Positions 55,148 to 64,000 of a DNA stretch of 64,000 nucleotides are shown piece after piece (the stretch's first letter is position 1; the number at the start of each line of letters is the position of its first letter). Under the pieces are notes generated by a model that saw only the letters and a program-made list of their open reading frames with translations, did not search any database and was not told where the DNA came from. Where the stretch lies: contig DAONFJ010000002.1 in the NCBI GenBank assembly GCA_035403545.1, positions 14,867-78,866 on the forward strand, given 5' to 3'. The translations under genes and the position numbers were made by a program. The DNA comes from Spirochaetota bacterium (GTDB taxonomy: Bacteria > Spirochaetota > UBA4802 > UBA5550).

Positions 55148-56443
55148 TCAGTGAAGAATACACTGGTCCATGAGCTGGGGTATCTCAAACGTAAATTCAG
55201 CCCATTCTCCATGCTTTGAATCAGCCCATATGCGGCCGCCATGGAGGAGAATTATTTTCCACGTGACGTAAAGCCCCACACCATGCCCTTTTCTTTCAGA
55301 AAGTTCAGGCGTCTGCAGTATAGAAAACCTTTTGAAGAGCCGTATTTTTTCACTCTCGGGGAATCCGGGGCCTTCATTCCATACAGATACCTTAATTCTC
55401 CCGGCATCTGCATTTATATTAAGTTTAATCACCGCTCCCCGGTTACTGTATTTTACGGCATTGCTCAGAAAATTTGTAAGAACAATTTTCAGCAGTTCGG
55501 GATCGCATTTTATTACGGGAAGATCCGGAGATACATTCTGCTCAAATTTAATCTGTTTTTCCTGAAACATCATATTTATAATTTCAAGAGAATGAGCAAC
55601 GACATCTCTGAAAAAATCAACTTCTCTGGGCCTGACCTGAAACTCTCCGGTTTCAATAGACGCCAGGCTCAGATATTCCGCAGTAAGGTTGAGCAGGTAT
55701 TCAGCTTTTCTGATTATCCTGTCTGCCGCCTGTTTCTGTTTACCGGCAATCTCTCCATAATATCCACCGGCCAGGGTCTTCGCGGTCATAACTATTGATG
55801 CGAGCGGATTTTTAAGTTCATGGCTGACGAAACTGAGCATCTCCATATATGAAGACATGGCAGTGGAAAGTTCTGCTATGCGGTAGGCTTTTTCAACCGC
55901 CTGGCCCAGTCTGTGGGCATAAGCCATCTGCAGGCTTATCTGGTGAATGCCGTACGCGTCCGGTTTGCGTGACCGGCACATGAACATTCCTATATACCGG
56001 TCTTCAGATTTCAAAGGGCATACCATGGATGACTTGATTCCTTCTTTCAGAAGCATGCGTGCAGATTCACTCATGGGGTTACTACGGGCATGAAGCTCCA
56101 TGTCATTGATTACGCTGGGCATGCCGGATAGAAAAACCTTTTGAATTGAACCGCCTATTATATCCGACGCGAATCCTTTTTTAAGATATACAGGTTCATA
56201 GTCCGACTTAACAAACTGAATTTCCATTCGCAGGTTATCTTCTTCAATGAAGGCAACATCGATCCTGTCACATGGTATTATTTTTTTTATCTCTCCAAAT
56301 ATGAAGTCGAGTATTTCATCCAGTGATTTGCTGCCTGCCACATCAAGGTTGATGTGATTCAGTATCGATCTTTCTTCATCTGTGAAAGAGGGCTCCGGTA
56401 TCAGATCTGTTTCGTTAAAAAAAAGCAGAGACTCTTTTTTCAT
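55148..56443 (-). CDS. Cytoplasmic GAF-domain sensor histidine kinase
   Basis: H-box FVSHELKNPL, N-box LSNAVKY, G-boxes NEGPGF / GHGVGL. No TM segments and no adjacent response regulator. Confidence 0.88.
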   Translation of the reverse strand: MKKESLLFFNETDLIPEPSFTDEERSILNHINLDVAGSKSLDEILDFIFGEIKKIIPCDRIDVAFIEEDNLRMEIQFVKSDYEPVYLKKGFASDIIGGSIQKVFLSGMPSVINDMELHARSNPMSESARMLLKEGIKSSMVCPLKSEDRYIGMFMCRSRKPDAYGIHQISLQMAYAHRLGQAVEKAYRIAELSTAMSSYMEMLSFVSHELKNPLASIVMTAKTLAGGYYGEIAGKQKQAADRIIRKAEYLLNLTAEYLSLASIETGEFQVRPREVDFFRDVVAHSLEIINMMFQEKQIKFEQNVSPDLPVIKCDPELLKIVLTNFLSNAVKYSNRGAVIKLNINADAGRIKVSVWNEGPGFPESEKIRLFKRFSILQTPELSERKGHGVGLYVTWKIILLHGGRIWADSKHGEWAEFTFEIPQLMDQCILH

Positions 56444-56648: not shown

Positions 56649-57125
56649 ATGACCGCAAAAGCTTTCCAGGATTATTATCCTGATGATTATGCTCATTGCT
56701 ACGGCTGCGGGCGCCTGAACGAAAAGGGAATGCATATTAAGAGCTACTGGGATGGGGATGAAAGTTTTTGCCGGTTTACTCCCGCACTTTACCAGTCAGG
56801 AGGATTTCCCGGTAACATCTATGGCGGATTGATTGCATCACTTATTGACTGCCATTGTGCCGGAACAGCTGCAGCGGCAAGACTCAGGGAAGATGGTTTT
56901 ATGCCGGGTGAAAGGCCGCTGTCACGGTTTGTAACAGCATCCCTTAAAGTCGATTATATTAAGCCGACACCTGCAGGTATAGAACTCGAGATACGGGCCA
57001 GAGTGATGGAGATCAAAAACCGCAAGGTTGTATTAAGTGCAACTGTAATTGCCGATGGTATTGTAACAGCAAAAGGGGAAGCTGTTATGGTGCAGCTTCC
57101 CGAAAATTTGGAAAAAAGGATATGA
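56649..57125 (+). CDS. PaaI-family hotdog thioesterase with an N-terminal CxxC knuckle
   Basis: HCYGCG followed by GNIYGGLIASLIDCHCAG (hotdog core). Confidence 0.75.
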   Translation: MTAKAFQDYYPDDYAHCYGCGRLNEKGMHIKSYWDGDESFCRFTPALYQSGGFPGNIYGGLIASLIDCHCAGTAAAARLREDGFMPGERPLSRFVTASLKVDYIKPTPAGIELEIRARVMEIKNRKVVLSATVIADGIVTAKGEAVMVQLPENLEKRI

Positions 57126-57149: not shown

Positions 57150-59216
57150 TTATACAGCCATTAGTTTACTTTCAAGGCTCTTCATTCTGTCCATATCTTC
57201 AATCAGGGCAAGGAGGCTTTTAAAAAGTTCGAGTATTTTAGCAGAGTCATTTTGTATGGTGATTGAGTTTTCCAGGAGGCTTTGAATTCCCTGATCAATT
57301 GATGAACTGTTTTTAACAACCTGCTGCATCCCGTTATTAAGTGAAGCAATCGCCTTGCTTATATTTTTAATCTCTCCGGTTATTCCTGTTATAACATTAT
57401 TGCTCTCCCTGAGCTGAGCCTGGGTGCTGTCGGCAAGTTTTTTTACTTCATCGGCAACAACCGCAAATCCTCTTCCCTGATCTCCCGCTCTTGCTGCTTC
57501 AATTGCGGCGTTCAGCGCCAGCATATTGGTCTGATCAGACAGCTCCGATATTACATCGAGGATGGATTTTACCTCCCCGGCTGATGTTTCCATACCTTTA
57601 GCACCTTCGGCAAGGGATGAGTATGATTTCGAAGCGCCGGATACTCCTTCCAGGAAAACCATGAACTGCTGGTTGACAGTTGTGAGATCTCTATGGACCC
57701 TGTCTGAAAATTCTCTTATGTTTCCGAAATTATCAACGTTTTCCTTAACCATAGCTATCCTTGTGTCTACAGTATCAAACATGTTTTTTCTTATTGAGTT
57801 GATCTGCTCCAGCTGATTAATTTTCCTGCTGTTAAAGTAATCCTTAAAGCATGAATACTGGTGAACAAATGTATCGACATAATAGTCCCGGAATTTTCCC
57901 TCTTCCAGTTCCCGGAAGAAAAAAATTGCCGTTAATGTCTGATTTATATTAACACCTAACAGTTCCCCAAAGGTTGAAAAACCCGCGGCCGGGATACCTC
58001 CGAAATGAGTAATCCTGCTTAAATTTTTTTCATTATTAAGCCTGCGGAGAATACAGTCATTAAGCACAGCGCCGACCGGTTCCGCGTAACCTTTCTTGTC
58101 TGCCATAAATTTATCAAAATCTTTCCGTGTTGTCTCAACGAAATCTGTTTTTCTGATAAGGTAAAGTTCATCACCTTTAGAAACGTCACAATAAAAATTT
58201 ATCTGTTTTTCAGCCGTATCGATACCGGATACAGACCTTACGTAGAGCTCATCATCAATTTCTATACCGAAAGAATAGTCGTTGAGTTTTCCTTCGAGGT
58301 TTTCAGGCCTGCATCCGAAATGTGTACATAGCTCATCAAGAAAATTAGTTACAGTCTGCGTCGCAGGATTATATACTGTTTTTACATATCTCTTCGCGGT
58401 GTCTGAATCCAGGATCATGAATTTAGTCCCGGTCTTTTCGAAATTCTGCGATTTGAGTATACCGAATTTAATTCCTTTCCTAAGCTTGATAAATGAAATT
58501 ACTGCATGGTTTTCATAAATTTTTCCGTCGCTGTAAATAAATGTATTTTTAAAATCAAGCTTCCCTCCCGCTGATCCGCCTGCAAAGAGGCACGGGAAAA
58601 CGCCCGAGTTATATACAGCTTCCATAAAAAAACTTTCACTGTTTGAAAGTCCGTCAATCAGGGTAAACGCTATTGTATCTTCATAATGGATTCTGAATGG
58701 AAGCTCGATTTTTTTCAGTTCACTTCCTATAAGATCAATTCTGTCCTGAATTGTCCTTATAATCCTGCCTGACCTTATATCCTCTGAGAAAAGCGGAATT
58801 ACTTTAACGGCGGCATCCTCTATCATATCTTTGCTGAAGCTCTGCAGAACAATCCCGTCCCATTTATCACCGGTGTCATGGTATGCAGATACCCCGGTTT
58901 GGCTGTCGCATGACAGTTCACCGGCGGTTGTACAGAGAACAATGTTTTTTACACCCGGAAGAGAATTTTTTATTTGTGAAGATACTGAACGGAAATCAAG
59001 GTGCGGGGAGATAAAACCTGTCACAAATTCAGGCGGCACATCCCGGGTATATAAAACTTTCATACTTTGCGGATTAATTCCGGATGAACTGAATTTATAA
59101 TTTTTTATTACCGGGTCTTTTATTTCTATTTCGGGGTTTGCAGTTTCTGCTATTTCTTTTATTACGATTTTATCAGTAGAATTTTTTTTTGACAGCAAGT
59201 TTTTCATAGAAATCAT
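57150..59216 (-). CDS. Soluble methyl-accepting chemotaxis protein with an N-terminal FIST-type sensor
   Basis: Signalling hairpin [42 protein letters not shown]-like blocks LFAGGSAGG and [12 protein letters not shown]. No TM segments. Confidence 0.8.
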
Positions 59217-59620: not shown

Positions 59621-60121
59621 TCAGATACCGCACTTATTTTTTCGTTCATTGACTGATTCAAGCCGCACTCTTCTTCTTTCAATAGCTTCACAGTTTCTTC
59701 TTTTCTCATCATCTGTTTCAAGAATTATCTGGTTTATCACTTTCGGCTTATATTGTTCATCAAGCGCAACAAAGGTCAGGTAAGCTGAACCTGTGTGTCT
59801 TACTTCGCCGGTCAGGAAACTTTCAGCTTCAACTCTTACACCGATTTCCATTGATGATTTTCCCACATAATTGACGCTTGCGCTTACACGGAGAAGATCT
59901 CCGACAAATACCGGTGAATGAAAATCGACTTTATCTATAGATGCTGTAACAACATTTCCGCCTGTATGCCTTACACCGACAATACCTGCCGTGTTATCTA
60001 TAAGTTTTAATATCACGCCCCCGTGGACGTTCCCTGCGAGGTTTGCATCCTGCTGGGTCATCTGCTGGACAACTGTTACACTTGTTGCTTTTACTTTTTT
60101 ACTTTCCATATTGTACTCCAT
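59621..60121 (-). CDS. Acyl-CoA thioesterase (hotdog fold, YciA/ACOT-like)
   Basis: QDANLAGNVHGGVILKLIDNTAGI core motif. Confidence 0.8.
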   Translation of the reverse strand: MEYNMESKKVKATSVTVVQQMTQQDANLAGNVHGGVILKLIDNTAGIVGVRHTGGNVVTASIDKVDFHSPVFVGDLLRVSASVNYVGKSSMEIGVRVEAESFLTGEVRHTGSAYLTFVALDEQYKPKVINQIILETDDEKRRNCEAIERRRVRLESVNERKNKCGI

Positions 60122-60441
60122 AAAATATTATTATTTATAATTGTCTCAAAAAAAACTATTTCATCCGCCTGAACACCTGTTGGTTAGGGTTATTATGAGT
60201 TTTTGTTTTAATGATAATAATTATCAGGTCTATTTAAATTTTTTAAGTTACGAAAATTATTTTAGTAATTAACCATATACTAAATATATAATATTTTTTT
60301 AAATTTGTCAAAAAAAAATGTAAATGGGAATTTTTTAGCATGCAGTAATTCGCATCAGATTTATTTTATTTAAAGCAGTAAAAAATTTTTAAACAACTCC
60401 TTCATGTCAGGAGAGGGGAAAGATGAAATCAGCTAAATCCA

Positions 60442-62430
60442 TTACTTCAAATTCAAAAGAATATTCTCTGATTCTCTCGCAGCCATTGTTCCTGTCCCTT
60501 TTCTGAGAATGGCGACTATCCCTGTGGAATCCAAACCTCCCGTAAAAATTCCGTAGCTGTAGTGAGAGTTTGTGCCTGCAATAACAGTTCCGGTTTTACC
60601 CCACAATAACTCTCTGCTGATTTTGTGAGGTGAAGAGATTTCGGGGTGTATGTTCCCGGCATTGATCTCTTTTGCTGTTCCTTCGGTAAATGTTTTATGA
60701 AGCGCGCTGAAAATTATTTCTGATTCTTCTGATGGATGAACTTTATTCTCCATATAAATATATCTGTTTAACTTTATAATTCCTTCAATGGTTACAGTCA
60801 GGTTAAAATTAACTCCCGCGAGAAGATTTGAAAAATCTTTTCTGCTGTTTATTCCCGGGATTGTTAATTCAATTCCCTGTCTAACAGTAAAATCAGTGAT
60901 CCATCTTTTAAAATCCGCAACATCTATTTTATCATATAATGAAGCGAAGTATTTATTGCAGGAATGGCAAAGCGCGCTGCTGATATTCATTTTCCCATGC
61001 CCTGCTTTATTCCAGCAGTGATCCGGTATAAATTTATCCTTCTCTCTGTCAGTGCACGTATAGGAATAATTATGGAACAGATCTTTTCTTTCCTCCGCGA
61101 GATATAGAGCTATGAAGAGTTTAAAAATTGAACCGCAGGGGATAATTCTGTTTCTGAATGAAATCCCGGCGCTGCTTTGAATTGTTTCTCCTGAATCATA
61201 ATCGAAAATGATGTACTGAAGCTGGTGGTTTACACCTGATTGCGGGATGTTGTACTCCAGTCCGGAATAGTAATGTTCAAGTATTTCATAGCGGGAGTAC
61301 CCTTTTCCCGCGAGCTGTATTGCTCCTTCAAAACTCATCCCTGCACCATGTCCAAGCCCTGATCCTGTGAATCTGTAAACTCCGTTACCTCTTGCGACGG
61401 AGTAGTTATTGCTTTTTAAAAAGTTCCATCCCTTCACCCTGTTTACTGTTAAACGGAAACTTTCCGGAGAGAAGTTTTCTTTTCCTGCACCTGTTTCAAG
61501 AAGTACTATTTCCTTGTTTTTATCGAATGTAATGTTTTTTAAAAATATATTTTTGCCGGGGTACAAAATACCGGCAAGTTCATTCTCCTCTATGACTGCT
61601 GACCAGTTAAGATGTTTTTCCCGGCTAAGGGTAAGATTCTCTGAATAAATAATATCTTTTGGTGCTGCAGTAATTCTTCCCTGGCCGTTGAATATAGATT
61701 CAGTGAAGAGTATACCTCCGCCTGATGAATGAAAGAAAAGCCCGCCTTTCAAATTATCAGTTTTAATTGATACTGTGTCATTAAATGTTTTGCCGCTTTT
61801 CCCTCTATACGTCTGGCAGCATGTAAGGTCGCAGAAATGGTATCCTTTATGTTTATTCGTAAGGTATGGAAGTGAGCATCTCGCCTTAATGAGGTGAGCA
61901 AGCGCGTATAAAGCTTCGGAGTCTCTTTCAGAGAGATCGCCAAGTTCACCCCATGCTGAATCTATGGCGAACTGATTTACTGTTTCCTCTACCGACAATT
62001 CAATATCTGTTCCCGTAATTTTTATGAACAGGGGGAGAGGGTAATGGCGTTTTTCTCCATTTAACTCCATGGAGAAATTATCACCCCGGTTCTTCGGGTA
62101 TAGAGTTAAATCCGTTCCTGTTAAAATATCATTATCTGTTTTTATAACGAAAGAATTGTTTTCGTAAAGAATGGTAAGAGCACGACAGGGAATTCTTTTT
62201 CTTCCTGTTAAAATTTCTCCGGTATCAGGCAATGATATCTGAAGATGGCCTATATTGCCCGCTTTAAGAAGGCGGATATGTTTTGAGAGAATGAGTATTT
62301 TGACTTTGCCGCTGCCGTTTTGAGGCATTTTTTCCGCTCTCACTCCAATTATGAGAGCGGAAAAAATTAATATGGTTATTACCAGCCGCGGAACTGTTCC
62401 ACGGTTAATTCTGTTTTTCACTGTAGACAT
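60442..62430 (-). CDS. Fusion of a SpoIID/LytB-type domain and a serine transpeptidase/beta-lactamase-like domain, with an N-terminal signal anchor
   Basis: SpoIID blocks SEALYALAHLIKAR, FCDLTCCQTYRG, GLGHGAGMSFEGAIQLA..ILEHYYSG. C-terminal SxxK (SIFK), SxN (SCN) and KTG (GKTGT) in the canonical order. Confidence 0.75.
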   Translation of the reverse strand: MSTVKNRINRGTVPRLVITILIFSALIIGVRAEKMPQNGSGKVKILILSKHIRLLKAGNIGHLQISLPDTGEILTGRKRIPCRALTILYENNSFVIKTDNDILTGTDLTLYPKNRGDNFSMELNGEKRHYPLPLFIKITGTDIELSVEETVNQFAIDSAWGELGDLSERDSEALYALAHLIKARCSLPYLTNKHKGYHFCDLTCCQTYRGKSGKTFNDTVSIKTDNLKGGLFFHSSGGGILFTESIFNGQGRITAAPKDIIYSENLTLSREKHLNWSAVIEENELAGILYPGKNIFLKNITFDKNKEIVLLETGAGKENFSPESFRLTVNRVKGWNFLKSNNYSVARGNGVYRFTGSGLGHGAGMSFEGAIQLAGKGYSRYEILEHYYSGLEYNIPQSGVNHQLQYIIFDYDSGETIQSSAGISFRNRIIPCGSIFKLFIALYLAEERKDLFHNYSYTCTDREKDKFIPDHCWNKAGHGKMNISSALCHSCNKYFASLYDKIDVADFKRWITDFTVRQGIELTIPGINSRKDFSNLLAGVNFNLTVTIEGIIKLNRYIYMENKVHPSEESEIIFSALHKTFTEGTAKEINAGNIHPEISSPHKISRELLWGKTGTVIAGTNSHYSYGIFTGGLDSTGIVAILRKGTGTMAARESENILLNLK

Positions 62431-64000
62431 CTAATATTGTCGGGAGAGTCCATCCCTGAATTGTCTCTTCATACATACATTCAATTCTTGCAGGCCGCAT
62501 TATAAATGAACCGGGAAGCTCGGCACGTATTACATAAGCAACTTCATACTCTCTTTCTTTTTCTATTCCCGTGAAGAAGAATACCATTCTGTTATCTCTT
62601 CTTTCTACATGGGAGTAGGGCTGAAATTCGTTGTATGCGCTCTCTTTAACCACTTCAAATCCTGCCGGGAGAAAATCCTGCAGTATCATAAAACCAAAAC
62701 TGTCATCGGCGCGGAATTTGACACGTACAAGAAGCTCATCTCCCACATTGATCTTTCCTTTCTCGTCAACCTCCTGTGGCACAAGATACTCCTGCATCTT
62801 CAAATCTTTAACCCTGTTGAGGTAATAAATTTCCCTTCTTGCGGCAACACCGTTAGAGAGAGCTGCAATGCCCCGTTTCTCGGACTTCATGAACGAGAAG
62901 AGCCCTTTCGGCTTAAAGTAAAGGGTACCGCGCAATGTTGCCGACCAGGTTGTATCAGCGGAGTCTGTGCCTGAAACTGTAAGTCTGTAGTTTTCGGCTT
63001 TTATTTTATTATCAAGTTTTATTGTACGTCTCAAATCTTCGGTGCCTGAGTTGAGAGTGTATGATATTTTATCAAGTTTTCCGTTATTCAGTGCAAATTC
63101 AAGGTCACCGGAAGTTTTAAAATCAATGCCTTTAGCGGTAAGATAATCGCATAAGGCAAGAATCACTGTCCCTGACTCTTTGGTTGAGTCCCATGACCCG
63201 GACTTGAACCTTTTTGATATGGACGCAACTGCCTGTGATGTCATTGCTGAACTGTTATCTGATATTAAAAGCGCAGATAGTACATGCGCGGTTATCTCGG
63301 TGTTGCCGCCAGGCCAGTTCCATGCCTGTCCCTTAGTTGCAGGCCAGTATATTCCTGATGGATCCCGTTTTGCCGATTCATTAATTTTTTTCCTGAGTAA
63401 TTTTAACGCGTCATCAATCTCATTTGACTCGTATTCCTGAAGAGTTTCTTTCCCTTTAAATGTATTTACTGCTTTAATTAAGTTTGCAGCCTGGTAAGGA
63501 TTCAGGTCTTTAGAAAAAGCTATCCGCTTGAATGCCGGATGGTTCCATTTCCCGAACATCGAGTAGATGTATGCAAGATACGAAAGTTCATCGTTATCCA
63601 TTTTTTCAGGTGCTTCAAAAATCCGTTGTATCGCTGTGAGGCCCTGGCTGAATGTGTAGTCACTGACCGGATACCCGTAGTTTCTCGCCTGAAACAGCGA
63701 GTACATCGCAAACCCGGTAGTGTATGTGTTGCCTCTGTCACCTTCCCACCAGCCCCAGGTGCCGTCATAGTTCTGTGCTTTTACTATACGCTGAATTCCG
63801 TCGGGGATATTACTCTCCACCTGGTTCCTGAGTTTTTCAGGAATCGCTTTTGAATAACCGCTCCCTTTGAGCAGTTTAAGCATGGCGAGATTCGGGAGGA
63901 ATTTATTTATAGTCTGTTCAAGGCATCCGTAAGGGTACTCGTTCAGGTACTCAACTGACTTAATGATCTGTGTAACAGGTGAAGGATTTACCGAGAGAAA
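62405..64000 (-). CDS. Bacterial alpha-2-macroglobulin (thioester type), C-terminal part; 5' end outside the window
   Basis: The frame is open from the ORF-track Met (63883) to nt 64000 and reads ..VEYLNEYPYGCLEQTINKF.. (CLEQ, nt 63925-63914). It continues with AQNYDGTWGWWEG and the C-terminal MG/receptor-like domain. Confidence 0.85.
   Translation of the reverse strand, partial: FLSVNPSPVTQIIKSVEYLNEYPYGCLEQTINKFLPNLAMLKLLKGSGYSKAIPEKLRNQVESNIPDGIQRIVKAQNYDGTWGWWEGDRGNTYTTGFAMYSLFQARNYGYPVSDYTFSQGLTAIQRIFEAPEKMDNDELSYLAYIYSMFGKWNHPAFKRIAFSKDLNPYQAANLIKAVNTFKGKETLQEYESNEIDDALKLLRKKINESAKRDPSGIYWPATKGQAWNWPGGNTEITAHVLSALLISDNSSAMTSQAVASISKRFKSGSWDSTKESGTVILALCDYLTAKGIDFKTSGDLEFALNNGKLDKISYTLNSGTEDLRRTIKLDNKIKAENYRLTVSGTDSADTTWSATLRGTLYFKPKGLFSFMKSEKRGIAALSNGVAARREIYYLNRVKDLKMQEYLVPQEVDEKGKINVGDELLVRVKFRADDSFGFMILQDFLPAGFEVVKESAYNEFQPYSHVERRDNRMVFFFTGIEKEREYEVAYVIRAELPGSFIMRPARIECMYEETIQGWTLPTILDVYSEKQN

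Follow-up and report, generated by a model that had tools for sequence, protein, structure and literature searches.

A SpoIID-transpeptidase fusion encoded beside a thioester alpha-2-macroglobulin in an uncultured spirochaete and its probable relationship to YfaQ/MagE

At the right-hand end of a 64,000-nucleotide stretch of DNA from a Spirochaetota bacterium (GenBank assembly GCA_035403545.1, contig DAONFJ010000002.1; this whole stretch is called the window below), the gene for a thioester-containing alpha-2-macroglobulin (A2M) is followed by a gene whose 662-residue product joins a SpoIID/LytB-type domain to a penicillin-binding transpeptidase (TP) domain. Two genomic contexts have been described for bacterial A2Ms: type I proteins carry a thioester, are lipoproteins and accompany pbpC, and type II proteins have no thioester and belong to the mag operon (PMC4498604, PMC5764988). 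The question raised by this locus is where a thioester A2M with such a partner belongs, and what the partner might do beside a protease trap. A preliminary description of the window proposed that the fusion is a penicillin-binding protein (PBP) 1c in which the GT51 glycosyltransferase domain has been swapped for a SpoIID domain while the protein's own TP domain was kept. We favor a different explanation, which we consider probable although well short of certain: the locus forms the distal part of a periplasmic A2M operon that belongs to the Mag/YfaS lineage and has a form peculiar to spirochaetes, and the fusion is a two-enzyme cell-wall protein related to YfaQ/MagE.

The macroglobulin and the two domains of its partner

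Both genes lie on the minus strand, and all coordinates are window positions unless a locus is named.

62405..64000, minus strand: 3' part of the thioester A2M gene, 531 codons plus stop (reading frame, Pfam)
63914..63925, minus strand: thioester motif C-L-E-Q inside YPYGCLEQT (translation)
60442..62430, minus strand: SpoIID::transpeptidase fusion gene, 662 aa, stop at 60444-60442 (open reading frame, hidden Markov models, structural model)
62405..62430, minus strand: 26-nt overlap of the A2M stop with the fusion start, frame shift +1 (open reading frame coordinates)

From position 64000 the A2M frame, which is open to the window edge, reads ..EYLNEYPYGCLEQTINKF.. and, further on, ..AQNYDGTWGWWEG.., and it closes with the stop codon at 62405-62407. 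The preliminary description had recognized the C-terminus of a thioester A2M here, with CLEQ at nt 63925-63914, and this is borne out by the frame itself, by Pfam matches past the cut-offs of the 531-residue window part to TED_complement (E 8e-14) and bMG10 (E 3e-21), and by the complete gene. The latter is found on a public contig (ENA ERZ795026; locus L001 in our numbering) that is identical to the window and extends past its right edge; it encodes 1791 residues (L001:2239-7614). In the full protein Pfam finds, in order, three CarboxypepD_reg domains, bMG3, MG2, A2M_BRD, A2M, TED_complement and bMG10, the last six all above their cut-offs, and no NCBIfam model matched it. With MG, bait-region, A2M, TED (with CxEQ) and MG10 domains the protein has the make-up of a thioester, type I-like A2M. 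The loss of the thioester that marks type II is not seen: GCxEQ is present in 60 of the 64 A2M open reading frames from related loci, the other four being that of L064 (HCTEQ) and three truncated or split frames that end before the site. The N-terminus of the window A2M, MKRLRLLFSILMLLAGLVLISNASPD, is a signal sequence with no Cys and thus no lipobox; a lipobox-like ..SC, ..GC or ..AC is present in the A2Ms of several other spirochaete clades.

The ATG of the fusion gene lies 26 nt before the A2M stop codon in a different frame. This overlap with a 662-residue signal-anchored protein had also been reported in the preliminary description, and the coordinates and a predicted N-terminal helix agree with it. 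No clear Shine-Dalgarno sequence was seen upstream of the fusion start, and because the genes overlap by 26 nt without one, the A2M and the fusion are likely to be translationally coupled. Overlap or abutment of the A2M gene and its partner recurs in close relatives and in the A2M/DUF2300 gene pair of Pseudomonas.

The fusion was analyzed through an alignment of 36 family members (33-74% identity) and an AlphaFold2 model built on 36 homologues (pLDDT 87.4, pTM 0.86), in which a helix at residues 12-31 is followed by a beta-rich and SpoIID-like region to residue ~395 and a penicillin-binding fold from residue ~404. The parts that matter for the argument are the following.

62338..62397, minus strand: N-terminal hydrophobic helix, residues 12-31 (AlphaFold2 helix, low pLDDT before residue 41)
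61246..62307, minus strand: SpoIID/LytB-type domain, residues ~42-395, with an N-terminal beta-rich part (Foldseek, hhalign)
61945..61947, minus strand: codon of E162, equivalent of the SpoIID catalytic Glu, E101 in C. difficile (invariance in the 36-protein alignment, profile alignment)
61816..61851, minus strand: H194..C200-D-L-T-C204-C205-Q, zinc-site equivalent (alignment to 5txu, 36-protein alignment)
60445..61221, minus strand: penicillin-binding TP domain, residues ~404-662 (Pfam, NCBIfam, Foldseek, hhalign)
61120..61131, minus strand: SxxK motif S434-I-F-K437 (G433, S434 and K437 invariant)
60955..60963, minus strand: SxN motif S490-C-N492 (S490, C491 and N492 invariant in the 36 fusions)
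60589..60597, minus strand: KTG motif K612-T-G614 (K612 and T613 invariant in the 36 fusions)

A hydrophobic N-terminus is present in all aligned homologues; the helix is predicted to be a signal anchor or signal peptide, which would place both domains in the periplasm. The assignment of the first domain, for which SpoIID signatures in the middle of the protein had been noted earlier, is upheld by several kinds of comparison. Searched against solved structures with phmmer, the fusion matched SpoIID (5i1t/5txu, E 5e-7) as well as class B PBPs, and in a Foldseek search of the PDB SpoIID 5i1t ranked first (E 2.9e-8, TM 0.60 on the target). Profile alignment (hhalign) to A2M-linked SpoIID proteins of other phyla that themselves pass TIGR02669 gave a probability of 100 and E 3.6e-54 over 325 columns. 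The NCBIfam model TIGR02669 (SpoIID_LytB) matched the fusion directly only in part, over residues 329-392 (its C-terminal 64), with 55.4 bits relative to a cut-off of 83.3. The residues invariant in the family are E162, E172, C200-D-L-x-x-C205-Q, G358/G360/H361 and H386-Y387. The motifs singled out in the preliminary description are invariant or nearly so across the 36 homologues, and the evidence taken together goes well past what chance would give. The catalytic Glu of C. difficile SpoIID is E101 and its zinc ligands are H134, C140, H145 and C146 (PMC6221140). In the profile alignment E162 of the fusion pairs with the Glu of 'AEM' in bona fide SpoIID proteins, and H194, C200, C(H)204 and C205 correspond to the four zinc ligands in the 5txu alignment, with which the profile alignment agrees; C200 and C205 are invariant, H194 is kept in at least 90% of sequences and position 204 is C or H. 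We infer from these motifs that the domain would have lytic transglycosylase activity.

The SxxK, SxN and KTG motifs that had been pointed out in the C-terminal ~260 residues fall within a TP domain matched by PF00905 over residues 430-594 (32.3 bits relative to a cut-off of 22.1), and their conservation across the family supports the assignment. The nearest NCBIfam models are pbp2_mrdA and SpoVD, the structural matches that follow 5i1t in the Foldseek search are SpoVD, PBP2, PBP3 and isolated FtsI TP domains, and alignment of the domain to stand-alone A2M-linked TP proteins gave a probability of 99.95 and E 5e-38. The possibility that the domain is a class D beta-lactamase or BlaR-type sensor was considered and rejected, as those models scored far below pbp2_mrdA and none was among the top 50 structural matches. 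At its third position the KTG motif has G in the window's own clade and close relatives, and A or S in more remote fusion clades. In a second alignment, which adds stand-alone TP proteins to the fusions, invariance at the SxN site is limited to the Ser and the Cys; the third residue is usually N, with D in L073 and S in L076. Acylation, and DD-transpeptidase or DD-peptidase activity, would be expected of such a domain. Because the catalytic Glu, the zinc ligands, SxxK, SxN and KTG are all kept, both domains look catalytically competent.

Recurrence of the pair and the question of PBP1c

The fusion family comprises ~90 clusters at 90% identity, or ~47 representatives at 50%, and occurs only in uncultured Spirochaetota, many of which bear the label Leptospirales, and in a few bins labelled Smithella. 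In tblastn searches, 41 of 51 distinct full-length spirochaete loci (~80%) had an A2M gene linked to the fusion gene, down to 33% identity, so that the earlier suggestion of a conserved module holds; six loci (L001-L006, 34-100% identity) show the gene order AMMECR1, A2M (~1790 aa), fusion. Since the ten unlinked loci fall in four scattered clades, linkage appears to be ancestral and to have been lost several times. Three of the Smithella- or Smithellaceae-labelled bins (L040, L043, L046) carry the full spirochaete-type cluster of VanW, AMMECR1, A2M and fusion, as a result of either mis-binning or lateral transfer.

A genome scan also returned weaker matches (24-34% identity) in WOR-3, Kryptonia, Cloacimonadota, Myxococcales, Deltaproteobacteria, UBA10199, Sericytochromatia and Pseudomonadota metagenome-assembled genomes (MAGs). 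Analysis of open reading frames showed that in these other phyla the two domains are encoded by separate genes, a TP-only gene (~300 aa) followed by a SpoIID gene (340-580 aa). Both kinds of stand-alone protein are readily classified: the TP proteins score 69-134 bits with PF00905 and have pbp2_mrdA as the nearest model, and the SpoIID proteins score 74-87 bits with PF08486 and 194-216 bits with TIGR02669, well past its cut-off. Of 19 such loci, drawn from WOR-3, Kryptonia, Deltaproteobacteria, Myxococcales, UBA10199, Sericytochromatia and Pseudomonadota, 17 carry a thioester-type A2M gene (1480-1590 aa) a short way upstream. The hhalign results given above leave no doubt that the two halves of the fusion are related to these stand-alone proteins. 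Fusion and stand-alone proteins have signatures in common, DFCDLT[HC]CQ and GWNF[IL]KSNN in SpoIID and a Cys pair, CW..GHG and SCN in TP. There are also proteins in which the domains are joined in the opposite order, TP::SpoIID (670-720 aa) and TP::SpoIID::HExxH (830-880 aa), with solid Pfam matches on the TP and SpoIID domains; one TP::SpoIID locus reads A2M, YfaP-like, TP::SpoIID, Peptidase_MA_2. In all, the association of TP, SpoIID and A2M is found in at least seven phylum-level lineages besides the spirochaetes and in three fusion states. Because the two domains occur beside A2Ms as separate proteins, as TP::SpoIID and as SpoIID::TP, a Rosetta-stone argument suggests that a transpeptidase and a SpoIID-type transglycosylase act together on one patch of substrate.

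These distributions bear on the idea that the fusion is a housekeeping wall enzyme that stands beside an A2M gene by chance. The ten spirochaete loci in which a fusion gene has no A2M gene within reach are what such a coincidence would predict. The idea must also accommodate overlapping or abutting genes in ~80% of loci over deep divergence, the recurrence of the trio in the other lineages in three fusion states, and a degenerate form of the partner in E. coli and Pseudomonas (see below), and we find it scarcely credible.

They bear equally on descent from PBP1c. The proposal that a PBP1c exchanged its GT51 domain for a SpoIID domain and retained its TP, so that the fusion replaces PBP1c both in evolution and in function, draws on two likenesses to the YfhM system: the A2M has a thioester as YfhM does, and a TP protein gene overlaps the A2M stop much as pbpC abuts yfhM in E. 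coli. In addition, when the contig was extended no pbpC was found adjacent, the upstream region in L001 and L002 holding AMMECR1 and unrelated genes, and no GT51 gene or pbpC lies beside the A2M gene in any of L001-L004. The TP domain itself argues against the proposal, since it best matches PBP2/MrdA, SpoVD and FtsI, and the fusion gave no Transgly or PBP_1c match at E<0.1, no match to the PbpC models TIGR02073 and NF008414 and no BLAST match to E. coli PbpC. The SpoIID domain precedes the TP domain, the two are separate genes in other phyla, both fusion orders exist, and the homologue identified, YfaQ, belongs to the type II operon. The A2Ms point the same way: those linked to TP/SpoIID genes score 380-626 bits among themselves (380-510 bits for the window A2M compared with the others) and 131-169 bits with YfhM. 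Replacement of PBP1c by descent is thus contradicted by the comparisons available, and taken as a whole we regard the proposal as very unlikely; what survives of it is a functional analogy, a protease trap encoded together with enzymes that work on the wall.

An origin of the TP domain can be suggested instead. The stand-alone TP family is small and its next relatives are genuine PBP2 proteins at 35-45% identity, and because the family grades into these, the A2M-linked TP seems to derive from a PBP2 transpeptidase whose pedestal was lost.

The A2Ms themselves differ in architecture and affinity. The spirochaete proteins, of ~1790 residues, begin with three CarboxypepD_reg/Ig-like domains (residues 40-300 in L001), and the TP/SpoIID-linked A2Ms of other phyla (1480-1590 aa) match them only from residue ~215-480 and appear to do without this N-terminal region. 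The window A2M scores much alike against E. coli YfaS (162 bits) and YfhM (153 bits), and with values this similar the notion that it is closer to YfaS was dropped; only the deltaproteobacterial A2M is clearly closer to YfaS (261 bits) than to YfhM (169 bits).

Relation to YfaQ/MagE and a working model

In E. coli K-12 the order of the type II operon is yfaA, yfaT, yfaS, yfaQ, yfaP, such that the type II A2M gene yfaS is followed immediately by the gene for YfaQ (b2226, 'tandem DUF2300', 549 aa; COG5445). Pfam SpoIID matches YfaQ at residues 312-374 (27 bits relative to a cut-off of 23). In hhalign comparisons the TP domain of the fusion aligned with the N-terminal half of YfaQ with probabilities of 92-95 (best 95.2, E 2.5e-8), covering SxxK, the Cys pair and the SxN position, and the stand-alone SpoIID proteins aligned with its C-terminal half (probability 95.2, E 2.6e-8), covering the catalytic Glu and the EALKAQ motif. 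Alignment of the TP::SpoIID::HExxH fusions with the YfaQ family runs collinearly through 327 columns (probability 96.2, E 2.6e-9). YfaQ keeps SxxK and the Glu, has SCG in place of SxN and has lost KTG, the zinc cysteines and GLGHG; its C-terminal HEYLH is invariant. A bipartite YfaQ is not our suggestion alone, as a 2025 preprint describes its N-terminal domain as transpeptidase-like and its C-terminal domain as SpoIID-like, and reports that a yfaQ deletion gives wider cells and a phenotype profile like that of peptidoglycan and envelope mutants; it makes no mention of macroglobulin (10.1101/2025.02.11.637708).

Pseudomonas provides the link to the Mag operon. The COG numbers and masses of the P. 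aeruginosa magABCDEF products are tabulated (Table 2, PMC3735191). Read together with the gene order of Pseudomonas locus L086, which is YfaP, DUF2138, MagC, A2M, DUF2300/SpoIID, YfaP, that table shows the YfaQ homologue to occupy the MagE position. MagA and MagF were considered as the DUF2300 proteins and ruled out on the same two grounds, both being YfaP-like. Parts of the operon also accompany the unfused genes: two deltaproteobacterial loci read 546-aa protein, MagC (PF06672), thioester A2M, YfaP-like, NIF3, further genes, TP, SpoIID and 248-aa protein, MagC/YfaT (DUF1175) homologues lie upstream of the A2M gene in WOR-3 loci as well, and YfaP-like (DUF2135) genes lie downstream of it in deltaproteobacterial and myxobacterial loci. 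Because the domain order is reversed, the spirochaete fusion would have arisen independently of the YfaQ-type fusion, and the comparisons indicate that it is an independently fused, reversed-order relative of YfaQ/MagE with its catalytic motifs kept.

Several observations weigh against this explanation or against parts of it. The SpoIID half of the fusion, aligned directly with the C-terminal half of YfaQ, gave nothing (hhalign, E 0.6), and the two are linked only indirectly, by way of the stand-alone SpoIID proteins and of the three-domain fusions collinear with YfaQ. The profile searches proposed in the preliminary description gave a divided answer, in that PF00905 and the A2M and TED models were matched past their cut-offs whereas in the SpoIID region TIGR02669 stayed below its cut-off and PF08486 of Pfam went unmatched. 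KTA and KTS, the forms in distant clades, are unusual for active PBPs. The substrate of SpoIID is glycan strands stripped of their peptides, and no amidase was seen in the spirochaete cluster. The unlinked loci make up ~20% of the total (10 of 51), and the carriers of the fusion family are all uncultured MAGs. Finally, MagE of P. aeruginosa was recovered in the cytoplasmic fraction and did not associate stably with MagD as a two-protein complex, and since MagE formed no such complex a physical complex of A2M and fusion cannot be assumed.

The fusion might instead be a non-catalytic adaptor that mainly binds peptidoglycan and A2M so as to anchor or stabilize the trap at the inner membrane and wall, its motifs serving for binding with no turnover. 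The A2M of the window clade has no lipobox Cys and its partner has a membrane anchor, Mag partners (MagB, MagA and MagF) are known to stabilize MagD, YfaQ is conserved despite the loss of SxN, KTG, the zinc cysteines and GLGHG, and KTG itself has become KTA or KTS in distant clades. However, many clades have lipoprotein A2Ms for which no anchor would be required. Moreover, the catalytic Glu, the zinc ligands, SxxK, SxN and the K-T pair are conserved in 36 fusions at 33-74% identity and in the stand-alone proteins, and because they are kept so widely we argue for selection on catalysis. We take an adaptor role seriously and nevertheless consider it unlikely.

Our working model therefore retains a two-enzyme, YfaQ/MagE-related partner. 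Protease trapping has been shown for ECAM and MagD in earlier papers, and because the spirochaete A2M keeps its bait region and thioester it should likewise trap proteases that enter the periplasm, covalently via the thioester. The fusion would be anchored in the inner membrane with its SpoIID and TP domains facing the periplasm, and A2M and fusion, made together, would work next to each other at the wall and inner membrane. There the fusion could cleave glycan strands and crosslink or trim stem peptides locally, in the repair or remodelling of damaged wall, and, as a lipobox is missing from the window-clade A2M, the fusion may in addition tether that A2M to the membrane. A role in wall repair or anchoring, and a physical complex with the A2M, are proposals of this model. 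The fusion gene itself would have arisen by the joining of the TP and SpoIID genes that stand separately beside thioester A2M genes elsewhere.

Accessory genes may extend the set of activities. The products of the AMMECR1, VanW, A2M and fusion genes are exported or membrane-anchored by predicted signals, and nearly all AMMECR1 and VanW proteins of the listed loci with an unambiguous start have signal sequences. VanW is encoded upstream of AMMECR1 in L003, L005, L019, L021 and L024-L058 and after A2M in L071, L074, L076 and L077; it is in the cluster in most (more distant) clades and is not adjacent in the window clade. Its Cys98/His121/Asp133 triad is invariant in 30 of 30 sequences, and since recent work has established the VanW domain as catalytic for L,D-transpeptidation (PMC11348318) it could supply a third crosslinking activity in most clades. 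In other phyla the HExxH protein might provide a peptidase for SpoIID. This protein, of ~200-250 residues and Peptidase_MA_2-like, is encoded after SpoIID in unfused loci (L082:12222-12965, L083:12216-12962, L087:4048-4731) and recurs as the third domain of the TP::SpoIID::HExxH proteins P0377, P0424 and P0449 (832-882 aa). Its ~248-residue form matches the C-terminal HEYLH region of YfaQ weakly (12 columns, probability 24%), and the alignment of the three-domain fusions with YfaQ stops short of the HExxH/HEYLH region.

The AMMECR1 (PF01871) gene, which encodes a signal sequence, lies just past the right edge of the window (L001:1384-1977), directly upstream of A2M. It is also present in L002-L058, L071, L074, L076 and L077, and stands after SpoIID in four other-phyla loci. 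AMMECR1 proteins are normally cytoplasmic, and an exported form tied to an A2M departs from that norm. A search of the literature collection available to us found no paper linking macroglobulin with SpoIID, AMMECR1 or VanW.

Other neighbours vary. In one clade (L005:368-2665, minus strand; also L006 and L044) a divergent class A PBP gene lies 2 kb upstream of VanW-AMMECR1-A2M; that of L005 belongs to the PBP1A family (569 bits, cut-off 509) and falls below the cut-off for PBP_1c (324 bits, cut-off 494) in NCBIfam. In one distant spirochaete clade a gene for an 80-residue LapA_dom membrane protein sits between A2M and fusion (L003:9749-9991). On the other side of the fusion gene the window holds the following.

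60397..60413, minus strand: weak terminator-like hairpin directly 3' of the fusion stop, the probable end of the operon (sequence)
60311-60283: promoter-like site ahead of the next gene
59621-60121, minus strand: that gene, a 4HBT/hotdog thioesterase with no signal peptide
57150-59216, minus strand: FIST-FIST_C-MCP chemoreceptor gene
56649-57125, plus strand: second 4HBT gene
55148-56443, minus strand: GAF-HisKA-HATPase histidine kinase gene

The first 4HBT gene, with a promoter-like site of its own, encodes 166 residues in the window (called as 162 from the second Met in L001) and is found downstream of the fusion gene in ~19 related loci, in most of them directly after it. The chemoreceptor gene is present in L001 and not in L002, where there is an MFS transporter, and the kinase gene is retained in both.

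A broader joint reading, which we hold only tentatively and think less probable than not, is that the A2M-linked wall enzymes form an ancient cross-phylum machine of which YfaQ/MagE is a decayed remnant, that the two A2M types are bridged by it and that the trap is perhaps coupled to the wall. If so, the machine would consist of a TP-only PBP, a 'CDLTHCQ' SpoIID and the HExxH peptidase-like protein, with VanW and exported AMMECR1 in some lineages, and thioester-bearing Mag-like systems would be the bridge. Its enzymes could attach A2M or an A2M-protease adduct to peptidoglycan by transpeptidation or, alternatively, could open and reseal the sacculus around A2M.

Comparison with known systems

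Domain by domain, the nearest described relatives are endospore SpoIID and the class B PBPs. With the former (5i1t, 5txu, 4rwr) the fusion has in common the fold, the catalytic Glu, the H/C/H/C zinc site and the C-terminal GxGHGxG...HYY motifs; it differs in that its host is no spore former, in that the domain is joined to a TP and in the DFCDLT[HC]CQ and GWNF[IL]KSNN signatures, which are common only to A2M-linked SpoIID proteins. With PBP2/MrdA, SpoVD and FtsI it has in common the ordered SxxK, SxN and KTG motifs and the best model and structural matches. Class B PBPs have an N-terminal pedestal that couples them to SEDS polymerases, whereas the TP of the fusion is only ~255 residues long, has no pedestal and carries the family-specific invariant Cys pair and CW..GHG motif.

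As an operon, the locus resembles YfhM (ECAM)-PbpC in having a thioester A2M with bait region, TED and MG10 domains and, in the downstream gene, a membrane-anchored periplasmic peptidoglycan enzyme with a penicillin-binding TP fold, and the logic proposed for that pair, a protease trap plus wall maintenance (PMC4498604, PMC5764988), is the part of the earlier interpretation that we retain, replacement of PBP1c by descent being the part that we do not. The spirochaete fusion has no GT51 domain and a class-B-like TP that matches no PBP_1c model, and its A2M is distant from YfhM (~150 bits), has three CarboxypepD_reg domains and, in the window clade, lacks a lipobox.

The resemblance to YfaQ/MagE is of another kind. 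Here too the gene follows the A2M gene immediately, with stop and start abutting or overlapping, the product is exported, and it has transpeptidase-like and SpoIID-like parts that are homologous at the level of profiles. In the spirochaete protein, however, the order is reversed (SpoIID, then TP), the catalytic motifs are intact where those of YfaQ are partly lost, the C-terminal HExxH (HEYLH) domain is absent and a membrane helix takes the place of a cleaved signal peptide. In contrast to the YfaS/MagD system the spirochaete A2M keeps its thioester, and in contrast to the Mag operon the accessories are AMMECR1 and sometimes VanW; tblastn with E. coli and deltaproteobacterial queries found no MagA/F (DUF2135), MagB (DUF2138) or MagC (DUF1175) in any spirochaete locus.

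By these comparisons the module in the window fits neither described type, since its A2M has a thioester and its partner is homologous to YfaQ/MagE of type II. It represents a third A2M arrangement, in which a thioester A2M accompanies recognizable and apparently active peptidoglycan enzymes. The claim that the partner had not been described holds only in part: a homologous protein (DUF2300) is a recognized A2M neighbour, and YfaQ/MagE is already known as a member of an A2M operon and as bipartite, its TP/SpoIID nature having been noted only in the 2025 preprint. What appears to be new is a thioester, Mag-related A2M with a reversed-order YfaQ-type partner whose motifs are intact, together with AMMECR1 and VanW accessories. 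Such a partner gives a testable biochemical hypothesis for YfaQ/MagE as a subunit of the Mag complex, and the idea that A2Ms cooperate with wall enzymes would be backed by a second, independent enzyme set. Seen in this way, the locus suggests that the type I and type II A2M systems are the ends of a continuum.

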